36,887 bases of DNA from a virus (Duplodnaviria; Caudoviricetes), in IMG/VR virus record IMGVR_UViG_3300048599_000798, positions 1-36,887 of that record; one strand, given 5' to 3'. Every line of letters begins with the position of its first letter. Position 1 is the first letter of the stretch. The notes under the pieces were generated by a model. The model saw nothing but the letters and a program-made list of their open reading frames with translations. It was not told the DNA's origin and did no database searches. Position numbers and translations under genes: made by a program. Shown piece after piece: positions 1 through 36,887 of this stretch.

Positions 1-414
1 TTAGAATTCATATATCCCTTCAATGTAAACCCCACTCGGTATTTCAGTTCGTTTCAAAGAACCGCTATAAACCGGATGGTTACACCATTGGGATAGTTTT
101 ATGGAAATGCTATCACCGAGGTTGAGCTGTATGTAAAATTCATAAAGTTGGCCATTTGGACTAAATGCCGGTACCGTCGAAAAATATGTTTCATACCCGT
201 TGGTAAAGGTTTTTTCGGTCGTTCCTAGTGCAAGCCAATTATTAAACCTATAATGAAGGTCTAATGTCCATACTTGACCGGGAAATTCATCTGCCAATTC
301 ATAACGGAATCCGGCATACCCGTGTATACCGTTTGTTTCTATGGCATAAACCGAACCGGTATAGATTAATAAAAGCGTTATTAAGCACATTGACAGCAAG
401 AAAAATTTCTTCAT
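1..414 (-). CDS. Secreted, small outer-membrane beta-barrel-like protein
   Basis: Sec signal MKKFFLL...SVYA; amphipathic aromatic-rich strands; C-terminal YEF; SD AAGGAGG upstream. Confidence 0.6.
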   Translation of the reverse strand: MKKFFLLSMCLITLLLIYTGSVYAIETNGIHGYAGFRYELADEFPGQVWTLDLHYRFNNWLALGTTEKTFTNGYETYFSTVPAFSPNGQLYEFYIQLNLGDSISIKLSQWCNHPVYSGSLKRTEIPSGVYIEGIYEF

Positions 415-450
415 AGGATATCCCTCCTTATTGTGAATTGTGGAGTATTA

Positions 451-495
451 TTCCTTGCCTCTATTAGGCTTGGAACCGGCTTTGCCGCCCTTACA
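451..495 (-). ncRNA. Degenerate twister-ribozyme-like motif
   Basis: UAA-GGGCGGCAAAGCC-GG-UUCCAAGC-CU...AGGAA resembles the twister P4/L4 core (GGUCCCAAGCC type); UUCC can pair with GGAA, but P2/P1 pairing and the catalytic GA are disrupted. Confidence 0.45.
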
Positions 496-566
496 TGCTT
501 ATAAAATATATAAATTTTTCAAGGAGCAATTTATATAAAAGGGGCGGCATTTTCCCCCTACGCCGA

Positions 567-630
567 CGGGTTCCCGCGACGCCCCAAAGGGCGTTTCGGC
601 CTGGTCCCGGCAGGCCATCGTCAGGTGGGT
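567..630 (-). ncRNA. Hammerhead ribozyme (type I, U inserted after A9)
   Basis: ACCCAC CUGACGA U GGCCUG-CCGGGAC-CAGGCC GAAA CGCCC-UUUG-GGGCG UC/GCGGG; predicted cleavage after GUC (578/577); loop II CGGG can pair with downstream CCCG. Confidence 0.85.
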
Positions 631-633
631 TAT

Positions 634-810
634 TTATTTCGTGTAAACGTTCAATCCCACTTTTACCGATTCCCGTCCTTCAACCGCCTGGTTGCCTTCC
701 GTGGTGGCAATTATCATTGTCTTGCCGCTGGCGCTCGGGCCAAAAGTCTTACTGAGGTCAACTGTCAGGGTCAAAATGTCTCCTTCTACCTTCATTGCTA
801 CGTTTTTCAT
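634..810 (-). CDS. 58-aa small protein (not in ORF track)
   Basis: MKNVAMKVEGDILTLTVDLSKTFGPSASGKTMIIATTEGNQAVEGRESVKVGLNVYTK; SD AGGAGG at 821-826; near-consensus promoter upstream. Confidence 0.85.
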   Translation of the reverse strand: MKNVAMKVEGDILTLTVDLSKTFGPSASGKTMIIATTEGNQAVEGRESVKVGLNVYTK

Positions 811-853
811 AATTTACATGCCTCCTAAATTTGAATATTAATATTCATTCCCT

Positions 854-933
854 ATAATCATTTTAAATGATTATTTTAATCATGTCAAGTAATTTATTTA
901 ATTATTGAAAGGCTTGAAGAACCATAGTAAAAT
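854..933. promoter_or_regulatory. Divergent sigma-A-type promoters with palindromic operator candidates
   Basis: Minus: TTGACA(888-883)-17-TAAAAT(865-860), overlapped by inverted repeats ATGATTA-N3-TAATCAT and ATAATCATTT-N-AAATGATTAT. Plus: TTGAAA(905-910)-17-TAAAAT(928-933). Confidence 0.75.
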
Positions 934-951
934 ACAATTGAGGTGTTTATC

Positions 952-1455
952 ATGGATATTGTTGAGTTAAAAAAGACTGTTGGCGGTAGATTGCAGGAGC
1001 TTCGAAACAGCAAAAAATTATCCCAATATCAACTTGCCGAGAATGTTAGTATTAATCAATCCAGCATTGCAGAATATGAACGCGGGAATCAATTACCCCC
1101 GGTAAACAATTTAATTATTTTTGCCAATATTTTTCATGTCAGCCTTGACTATCTCACTGGCCGGACCAACGATCCGGCTCTCCATCAAATGGCCGAATTT
1201 AACAAAGCGAATTTTCAAGGATGTTCGGAACGAGAGCTTAAATTTTTAAGCATCATGTTTTCCGCTGTAAATCAATTTCTTGATGATGATGAACCAAAAG
1301 CGGTTATCGAGACCTTAACGGCAATGGCTGACCGCGCCGAATTGTCGGATGAATTTAAAAATCTAGCTGTGATTTTATCGAAAATGGTTGTTGAGCGGTA
1401 TAAAAAAGAATTATTAGCCATGGAAGAAAAGATAAATGAGCTGGGGAAAAAGTAG
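952..1455 (+). CDS. XRE-family HTH transcriptional regulator
   Basis: RLQELR..LSQYQLAE..IAEYERG..VSLDYLTGRT; SD GAGGTG before ATG 952. Confidence 0.9.
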   Translation: MDIVELKKTVGGRLQELRNSKKLSQYQLAENVSINQSSIAEYERGNQLPPVNNLIIFANIFHVSLDYLTGRTNDPALHQMAEFNKANFQGCSERELKFLSIMFSAVNQFLDDDEPKAVIETLTAMADRAELSDEFKNLAVILSKMVVERYKKELLAMEEKINELGKK

Positions 1456-2375: not shown

Positions 2376-3000
2376 TTAAAAACTGACTTCCATTCCAATC
2401 TTCAGGCGTCGATCATAATCCTGCTCATACCGGCCATAAGCAACCCAATTCCGCCAGAATTGAAAATCCTTTTGAATGTAGCCACCTATTCCAACTTCAT
2501 TGAAATTTGTTACTACACCCAGACCAATATGCCAAAGTTTTTTTGGTTGATCCGGAACGTCTATAGCCACTATCGTAGAATTCTGAAATTGGGTAGATAT
2601 ATCCAAATATTCCTGGCCGACTATGACCGTGGTTTCTCCAGTAAGCGGATGAACCCCTTCACCTATTTTCTGGCCGGAGAAATCCAAATAAATGGTTTTA
2701 ACCTCCCCGGTTGCTGGCGCCGTAAATTTATCCCCGACCGCCAAAGTTAAAACAGGTTTCAGCGCCGGTAAATCGTCCGGGATAGGGATAGGTTGCGGAG
2801 ATTGGTTTCACCGGTACCCGGCTGGTTAATTGTCCTGTTTTTTGCTCCTGGATAATAACATCGGCCTTTTTTTCTTCGGCCTTGGTCGGATTTTCAACCA
2901 CCTTCACAGGCTTCCCCGGGCCGGGCTTTGGCTGAAATCGGATAAATAAAAAAGTCGTAATCAATGCGCCGATTACGACCCCAATTAATATTTTTTTCAT
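2376..3000 (-). pseudogene. Spanin-position membrane protein split by a frameshift (track ORFs 2728-3000 and 2376-2744)
   Basis: Upstream ORF has an N-terminal TM. Downstream frame is open from 2807, has no SD and reads as a natural continuation (SPQPIPIPDDLPALKPVLTLAVGDK), ending in beta-strands and terminal Phe. Confidence 0.6.
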
Positions 3001-35670: not shown

Positions 35671-35711
35671 TTTTAATTTTGTAAATGCAAGTTAAAGAAG
35701 GTGATATTTTT

Positions 35712-36887
35712 ATGAAAGGCTCCAAAACTAAACGTGGGGAAAATTCATGGTTAATCAGAATTTATGACGGGGTAGACCCTGAGACTGGAAAGAAAAAATA
35801 TATTCCCGAAACTTTTCACGGAACTGGAGACGAAGCTGACAATCGAATTCATGAAATTATTGCTGACCTAACCCGGGGAGAATACATTGACCCATCAAAA
35901 ATAACTTTTTATGAATTCCTGGTTACTCGGTGGCTGCCGGCCGTCAAGGCTAATGATAGTGATGGTACTTATAAAGAATACCAAATGATTGTGACTAAGC
36001 ATATAAAAAATGATTCAATAGCCAGGGTCATTTTGACCAAAGTAGAACTACAACACATTGAGGATTATAAGATAAGAAAATTAAACTCACCGCGGCTCGA
36101 TGGGAAAAAAGATAAAGACGGTAAACCGTTAAATTTATCTCCCAAAACGGTTAAAAATCATATTATAGCAATTAAAGCTGCTTTCGTTTATGCCTGTAAA
36201 CTTCGGGTATTAAAATATAATCCGGCCCAATACGCTGAATTCCCTTATGTTCCCAAGTATAAGGCAAAGACTTGGACCGAAGAACAGGCAGCTCGTTTCC
36301 TTGATGTTGCTTTTTATGACCGATTTTATTTTCTATTTCTTCTGGCGATATTTTATAGTAAACGAAAGGGAGAACTTAGAGGAATTAGAATTCCGGATGT
36401 TGATTTAGACAACCTTACAATGATGGTATGGAGATCTGTCAGAAACTCAGGTTATTCGGCACAATTTAAAGATACAAAAACAGATGAAAGTGAGCAGCTG
36501 CTAGAACTTGAAGAATGGATGATTCCGTTTTTTAAACGGGAATTTGCGGACAGAGCAGCTGAAAAGTTGAAATATGGGGAAGGTTATAGCAATAATCAAT
36601 TAGTGTTTGCTTCATTTAATGGTAATCCAGTTAAAGAGCGAACTTTGGACGAGCATTACAAGAAAATAATAGATCGATCCGGGGTTCCTGAAATACGATT
36701 TCACGATTTGCGGCATACATGTATAACTATTATGCTAAAAAGAGGTTGGAGTTTAAAACATGCTCAAACAAGGGCAGCACATGCAAGCATAAAGACAACA
36801 GGAGATACTTACGGGCATGTAACGCCAACTATGCAGCGTGATGTAAATAAGGACATGACAAAGGCTCTAAGAATTAAAACTAAATAA
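35712..36887 (+). CDS. int: Tyrosine recombinase / phage integrase
   Basis: R.GE box, KT, FHDLRHT, H....T...YGH. Confidence 0.96.
   Translation: MKGSKTKRGENSWLIRIYDGVDPETGKKKYIPETFHGTGDEADNRIHEIIADLTRGEYIDPSKITFYEFLVTRWLPAVKANDSDGTYKEYQMIVTKHIKNDSIARVILTKVELQHIEDYKIRKLNSPRLDGKKDKDGKPLNLSPKTVKNHIIAIKAAFVYACKLRVLKYNPAQYAEFPYVPKYKAKTWTEEQAARFLDVAFYDRFYFLFLLAIFYSKRKGELRGIRIPDVDLDNLTMMVWRSVRNSGYSAQFKDTKTDESEQLLELEEWMIPFFKREFADRAAEKLKYGEGYSNNQLVFASFNGNPVKERTLDEHYKKIIDRSGVPEIRFHDLRHTCITIMLKRGWSLKHAQTRAAHASIKTTGDTYGHVTPTMQRDVNKDMTKALRIKTK

Follow-up and report, generated by a model that had tools for sequence, protein, structure and literature searches.

An apparently undescribed, portable hammerhead–pseudoknot–boxA RNA unit in Bacillota prophages

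Genes and regulatory features of the locus

The window, i.e., the whole stretch of 36,887 nucleotides analyzed here, is a complete IMG/VR provirus record (IMGVR_UViG_3300048599_000798). Genes for an integrase, a repressor and an ImmA-like protein occupy its right end, and the head, tail, holin and endolysin genes are encoded on the minus strand. Past the lysis genes lies an accessory region with an ORF for a 58-aa protein, a divergent XRE-family regulator gene and a gene for a 137-aa barrel-like protein (Table 1), all of which were found, each with a ribosome-binding site (RBS), the genes and the RBSs of the two minus-strand ORFs being as the original prediction had stated. The 219-bp spacer between the two small ORFs contains a three-part RNA of about 115 nt (positions 629–517, minus strand), composed of a type I hammerhead, a 9-bp pseudoknot and a boxA; the pseudoknot and the boxA, which directly follow the hammerhead, had been missed in the original prediction.

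A near-consensus promoter covered by a palindrome had also been proposed for the 58-aa gene, and both elements were recovered. The perfect 10-bp inverted repeat (854–874) was matched by only 9 of 1000 shuffles, and the operator-like repeats overlie the −10 box, the spacer and the −35 box, with the third half-site placed on the −35 box. Promoter-like sites across the region are not above chance, with 9 found and 8.1 expected. The regulator contains the HTH_3 domain of XRE/Cro-C1 repressors, together with an RstR-like match below the cut-off, and its position makes control of the 58-aa gene promoter plausible; it likely regulates the divergent promoters locally. A two-way terminator (1494–1519) closes the XRE gene and is shared with a HicAB toxin-antitoxin pair (1549–2205) that has its own near-consensus promoter (2258–2230). 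Two further ORFs past the endolysin gene (2376–3000) matched no family; the second has a beta-rich, Phe-terminated end and may encode a barrel-like or spanin-region protein. Should the two ends of the record lie near the att sites, circularization of the phage would place the integrase gene in the path of a minus-strand transcript of the accessory region, which would enter it in antisense (window 1–414 and 35685–36887).

Table 1. Features of the accessory region, in window coordinates.
Feature	Position	Strand	Remarks
137-aa protein gene, small beta-barrel-like	1..414	−	RBS 429–423; N-terminal hydrophobic leader, predicted beta strands, C-terminal Phe
Twister-like sequence without twister helices	457..493	−	L4-like loop letters only
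Copy-specific inverted partial repeat	483..516	−	Inverted repeats I7 and I16; can pair with 548–528 and hide the boxA in a loop
U/A-rich linker and boxA-like motif	517..539	−	boxA 528–517; rRNA-operon match
Second module, 9-bp pseudoknot	540..565	−	Crossing helices 565–562/548–545 and 559–555/544–540
Type I hammerhead fold	567..629	−	Core, three stems, covariation; predicted cut between 578 and 577 (after C578)
Hammerhead stem I	629–625/577–573	−	4 of 5 pairs; A–C mismatch; pair 1.1–2.1 intact
Hammerhead stem II	616–611/603–598	−	6 bp
Hammerhead stem III	594–589/584–579	−	6 bp
Hammerhead core letters	624–618; GAAA 597–594; 579; 578	−	C3–A9, G12–A15, U16 and H17 all present
Hammerhead extra U after A9	617	−	Seen in the sequence
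Hammerhead loop II–tail pseudoknot	609–606/570–567	−	Seen as pairing
58-aa all-beta protein gene	634..810	−	RBS 826–821; unnamed widespread family; predicted homodimer
Operator-like repeats	854..883	.	Perfect 10-bp inverted repeat 854–874; third half-site 877–883
Near-consensus sigma-70-type promoter of the 58-aa gene	860..888	−	TTGACA-17-TAAAAT; 11 of 12 matches
Candidate promoter of the XRE gene	905..933	+	10 of 12 consensus matches only
XRE-family HTH regulator gene, 167 aa	952..1455	+	Divergent; likely start ATG 952, after RBS 940–945 (read from the sequence); HTH_3 in Pfam, E 5e-12

Proteins encoded beside the RNA

The 58-aa protein has 421 homologs, and no Pfam, PHROG or NCBIfam family matched it. 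Its structure was modelled with a pLDDT of 90, and fold searches with the monomer gave no named match. The domain is highly conserved and is distributed over Deltaproteobacteria, Planctomycetota, Methanoperedens and phages, so that the family is worth separate study. Tandem pairs of the domain were present in all 120 longer homologs examined, and Desulfomonilaceae proteins of about 330 aa carry it in this form. A two-copy model reached a dimer score of 0.50, as compared with 0.00 for the best control. Of 30 solved pairs, 20 attained the mark used for this score, as did 1 of 23 single chains. At least 97% of contacts were shared between runs, and the pLDDT was 78. The modelling supports a homodimer at the level of a prediction. 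In two viral loci, type III hammerhead folds unrelated to the window unit lie just 5' of homologs of this gene (L055, 2407–2476; L057, 2428–2482).

The 137-aa product had been described as secreted and outer membrane protein-like. The protein has a hydrophobic leader, predicted strands and a terminal Phe, the last being invariant in the family (8/8, the protein and its 7 homologs), whereas the barrel itself is unproven: the model shows a leader helix and 7 strand elements, as compared with the roughly eight antiparallel strands of a small outer-membrane barrel, at a pLDDT of only 52, and the best Z of 6.9 in the fold comparison is not decisive. Its Atlas look-alikes (0.94–0.95) are Phage_OMP (49% of members), PagL and OMP_b-brl, and a small exported beta-barrel is a plausible reading of these models. 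Homologs of the gene were not found in 151 genomes of one Bacillota order; the label of one homolog invites the guess that the host is a diderm member of the Bacillota.

A hammerhead ribozyme fold downstream of the 58-aa gene

Two ribozyme motifs of different classes had been predicted in the spacer, and the hammerhead is the one that covariation upholds. All core letters of the definition in the available text of Perreault et al. (2011; PMC3088659) are present. Three helices, supported by covariation, enclose the core and are paired beside it. From the strict consensus, which allows no insertion between A9 and G10.1, the copy departs at the extra U617. This U is invariant in alignment A3, in part because the search patterns forced it, and it is also present in the 8 loci of the boxA-end search described below. 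An extra nucleotide after A9 is reportedly tolerated in viroid hammerheads. Owing to the same U, the window copy escapes a strict hammerhead descriptor; a relaxed descriptor finds it, but also yields 6 matches in 20 shuffled windows, and for this reason the case for the hammerhead is built on covariation and not on the descriptor.

A search with the core pattern returned 65 viral stretches. Leaving the window aside, 54 of these are distinct, and a complete hammerhead fold with compensatory changes is present in nearly all. In an alignment of 37 rows that was fitted to the model, two-sided changes occur at 16 of the 21 nested pairs. The loop II–tail pseudoknot is paired in 97% of cells in A3, where its changes are one-sided only, and two-sided changes were seen by eye in the wider hammerhead set. 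The window copy, alone among the 37, has position 2 of stem I unpaired, and it may be weakened by this mismatch. Rfam did not detect the element: a single-family search of the window with Hammerhead_1 gave no match at E ≤ 10, nor did the hammerhead models match any of 20 other copies. The hammerhead fold is real, and self-cleavage is predicted from it. The phage loci L164–L228 form a large group of type I hammerheads that have the extra U after A9 and are undetected by Rfam, and many of their 3' products could form a 5' hairpin.

The second motif, a twister, found no such support. The letters at 479–467 resemble the L4 loop of twister beyond chance (1 of 100 shuffles, judged against the Rfam consensus line), and in this the window is like the twister families RF03160, RF03154 and RF02684. 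A helix test left P4 with 2 pairs, P2 with 2 of 3 pairs at best and T1 with no fitting L1 partner. With the L1 partner absent, and likewise P2 and the greater part of P4, two stems given as essential in PMC5408937, the stretch is not a member. Searches of the window with the Rfam models for twister-P1, -P3, -P5, twister-sister and pistol yielded no match at E ≤ 10. The stretch may be a decayed relic. A search with the twister-loop pattern gave one viral match, apparently a fortuitous one within a coding sequence. Elsewhere, a twister-sister match above the cut-off (56.7 bits) lies about 430 nt upstream of a hammerhead–boxA unit (L328, 992–1060), and a weak twister-P5 match was noted at L325 (1819–1873). 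Self-processing between the two cistrons, as originally proposed, is a fair inference for the hammerhead, which begins 4 nt past the stop codon of the 58-aa ORF; the contribution of a second ribozyme is unsupported.

A pseudoknot and an rRNA-type boxA past the predicted cleavage site

The second module is a pseudoknot (type A) in 25 of the 35 copies, as compared with 39 of 3500 shuffles; in the remaining 10, a hairpin takes its place. For 5 of the type A copies, the automatic scoring used a different register. When 24 of these 25 copies were aligned independently with MAFFT, 6 of the 9 pairs were seen to change on both sides and 98.6% of cells were paired, above every slid control. A U-run follows the second helix in most copies (it is missing in L309 and L313), the boxA lies 8–15 nt 3' of that helix in the 25 type A copies, and the conserved part ends exactly with the boxA. 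In the window copy, the inverted partial repeat that could hide the boxA was seen to do so in predicted folds. Two loci, L307 and L336, carry a second, type II-like hammerhead directly past the boxA, about 125 nt from the start of the unit, and L207 (517–643) keeps the hammerhead and the pseudoknot with the boxA damaged or lost, providing a natural control.

In two Bacillota genomes, G027 and G382, the boxA motif recurs about 105–155 nt before 16S and in the 16S–23S spacer. G272 and G354 gave no match to a longer boxA pattern, and the rRNA leaders of G272 have a boxA variant that the search pattern missed. With reference to B. subtilis, as given in the available part of PMC13753749, the window boxA matches 10 of 13 consensus positions and the family consensus 11 of 13. 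According to the same excerpt, the boxA of B. subtilis rrn operons follows a small hairpin and binds NusB, and antitermination at these operons has itself not yet been demonstrated. By its letters, the conserved motif appears to be the rRNA-type boxA of Bacillota, and NusB–S10 binding is putative.

In rRNA operons, the boxA letters overlap the processing stalk, and a TTNTTT run is a NusG pause motif. The element could accordingly be something other than a Nus site, namely a NusG pause signal, a mimic of the RNase III stalk or a site that acts at the DNA level. Complementary spacer letters are visible in rRNA operons and the commonest variant of the motif contains a TTNTTT run, both as such a site would have it, but variants that do not contain the run, the window copy included, retain the boxA signature. 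As to the DNA level, TTGA(C/A)A downstream was considered as a −35 box and rejected, as visual inspection of a number of copies revealed no −10 box at the distance expected of a promoter. We regard a site of this kind as very unlikely.

Distribution of the unit and fate of the cassette

The association of hammerhead and boxA was examined from both ends. Among 53 distinct core-pattern hammerheads, a set collected blind to the boxA, 4 have a boxA 45–95 nt downstream, as compared with 0 of 888 control windows. The test from the other end was the stronger one: a boxA-end pattern containing no hammerhead letters identified 8 loci, and a hammerhead lies upstream in all 8; seven were new, and the eighth, L290, on the same contig as L180, had helped to shape the pattern. 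A combined pattern matched 33 viral loci, of which 30 are distinct, as well as 2 genomes in a set of 401 from Bacillota, and model R1 scored 66–139 bits in all 40 sources searched, some of which had been used to build it. The total is 35 distinct copies, with the window, L300 and L226 included; because the patterns were built from the window copy and its first relatives, and the copies are related, such counts do not represent independent events. A pattern made of the 3' half of the hammerhead and the boxA proved too loose, with a core upstream in 12 of 61 matches, 2 of the 12 being false, and a plasmid search gave no full match to the unit.

An isolated phage, the Flavonifractor phage Castelnaud, carries one copy, a typical one at ON453903.1, 1212–1337, which ends 52 nt before the stop of a convergent holin gene; its GenBank record annotates a hypothetical CDS across the unit on the opposite strand. 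The stop codon of an upstream gene lies at most 14 nt away in 22 of the 35 copies. Among the 22 contigs of at least 25 kb, some of them related, 19 have the unit directed inward and no more than 8 kb from the contig end at its back, where 4.2 would be expected; this count does not include 11 shorter contigs. Unlike most copies, that of the window is directed outward. The family consists of three parts in fixed order and spacing, its helices covary, its boxA matches that of rRNA operons, and it is positioned past stop codons, close to the ends of prophages. Neither the window unit nor those at 20 other loci are covered by an Rfam family, and no paper describing a ribozyme followed by a boxA was found in the open literature; the hammerhead or the whole unit could be contained in papers under subscription, in catalogues of candidate RNAs or in the gapped alignments of Dataset S1 of Perreault et al. 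The composite RNA is real and portable, and it is apparently undescribed.

The genes around it behave differently. The original prediction had treated the promoter, the ribozymes, the two ORFs and the regulator as one cassette. This linkage is not conserved: no XRE or barrel-gene homolog occurs within about 2.5 kb of the 150 loci with a match to the 58-aa protein (152 examined), and none of the 152 loci examined for the 58-aa protein carries the RNA unit, nor does any of the 7 loci known for the barrel-like gene. Where upstream DNA of the barrel-like gene is available (4 loci, 3 distinct), AT-rich, promoter-like DNA stands in place of the unit, and at one locus of this gene (L156) a small HTH-like gene is divergent. 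The cassette is a local mosaic, and the genes flanking the RNA are best explained as interchangeable passengers, the genes beside the other copies being otherwise unrelated save for those discussed below. That a dedicated, conserved, XRE-controlled cassette with two ribozymes serves lysogenic conversion or superinfection exclusion has in its favor the shared orientation of promoter, operator-like repeats, hammerhead and exported-protein gene at a prophage end; with no pair of parts conservedly linked and the twister anatomy not found, it is largely refuted as a conserved system, and we consider it very improbable.

Proposed mechanism and alternatives

Structured 5' ends of RNA hinder RNase J. 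In the mechanism that we propose, and to which we assign an even chance, the unit would cut the growing transcript just past the upstream gene and load NusB–S10 antitermination on the piece still attached to the polymerase. Cleavage after C578 would uncouple the upstream message, the 5' piece departing with the upstream gene. The 3' piece would open with a predicted 4-bp hairpin, followed by the pseudoknot, and would in this way hinder 5' exonucleases; its new 5' end would resemble the hairpin-plus-boxA start of rRNA operons. Recruitment of NusB–S10 by the boxA could then allow transcription of untranslated or AT-rich DNA to continue without termination by Rho, and the protected transcription might reach a further gene, here the barrel-like one, or, in other phages, proceed antisense into lysis genes. 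According to the available part of a review, Rho acts against antisense RNA (PMC12360218). A same-strand gene with an RBS lies within 160 nt downstream in only 15 of the 35 copies, which argues against read-through into a gene as the general purpose, and for the window copy the stem I mismatch, the boxA-hiding repeat and the outward orientation weigh against the proposed mechanism.

A broader version, which we hold to be possible but somewhat doubtful, would make the unit a portable device that places a fake rRNA-operon start in mid-transcript in Bacillota prophages: the ribozyme cuts, the pseudoknot shields and the boxA loads antitermination with no phage protein, driving either downstream genes or antisense RNA that silences lysis genes in the lysogen.

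The same boxA could have the opposite effect, since the portion of the review available also records that a boxA can promote Rho termination or block translation (PMC12360218); the main rival is that the unit ends the transcript. The cut would shed the upstream ribosomes, the helix and U-run would pause the polymerase, and boxA-bound NusB would terminate transcription or block translation as at E. coli suhB, thereby insulating the accessory region from the lysis operon. The surroundings of many copies suit such a role. A convergent ORF lies within 300 nt in 13 of the 35 copies (doubtful in L313), and 5 of the 12 convergent proteins scanned, L313 being left out, match holin or endolysin families; furthermore, an opposite-strand terminator stands right after the boxA in 16 of the 35, and most copies have the U-run. 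The genes with a good RBS that follow 15 copies speak against it, as do the two copies with no U-run and the scarcity of same-strand terminators, found within 110 nt in 4 of the 35 copies only. On balance, we judge termination unlikely as the function of the unit.

Alternatively, the released 3' piece could itself function in trans as a stable small RNA, either as a decoy for NusB–S10 or as an antisense to the lysis message. Cleavage would give such an RNA a defined 5' end that is predicted to fold at once, conservation stops exactly where the boxA ends, and many copies lead directly into a hairpin or into lysis genes. Its 3' end is not conserved, however, and a gene lies downstream in half of the copies, and we consider this quite improbable. 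The co-transcriptional cut followed by antitermination, if true, would give phage ribozymes a testable job. The unit measures 115 nt and exists in 35 natural variants, one of them carried by an isolated phage whose host is a gut bacterium in culture, properties that make it suited to simple reporters, and those who express genes in Bacillota could use it as a compact insulator.

Comparison with known systems

The closest relatives are the pseudoknot-stabilized hammerheads between prophage genes, for which cleavage has been demonstrated in tandem examples (Perreault et al., 2011; PMC3088659, available in part). They share with the window copy the type I fold, the loop II–tail pseudoknot and a location between small, variable prophage genes, and they were proposed to cut polycistronic RNA. 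The portion of that work consulted makes no mention of a second module and a boxA past the cut, whereas the window subfamily has both, which look obligatory, as well as the extra U after A9.

The B. subtilis rRNA leader, as far as described in the accessible part of PMC13753749, likewise has a boxA just past a short structured element near the 5' end. Its 5' end comes from a promoter, whereas that of the unit would come from a ribozyme; its structured element is a hairpin, whereas the unit has a 9-bp pseudoknot (25/35) or a hairpin and resides in phage accessory operons.

Finally, the lambda nut sites, in which boxA and boxB act with the N protein (PMC12360218, available in part), are also phage elements that combine a boxA with a structure and recruit host Nus factors, a recruitment that is putative for the unit. 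A shared N-like gene was not seen beside the copies when flanking genes were scanned. In lambda nut the boxA precedes boxB, whereas here the structure precedes the boxA, is fused to a ribozyme and is found in hosts of the Gram-positive type.
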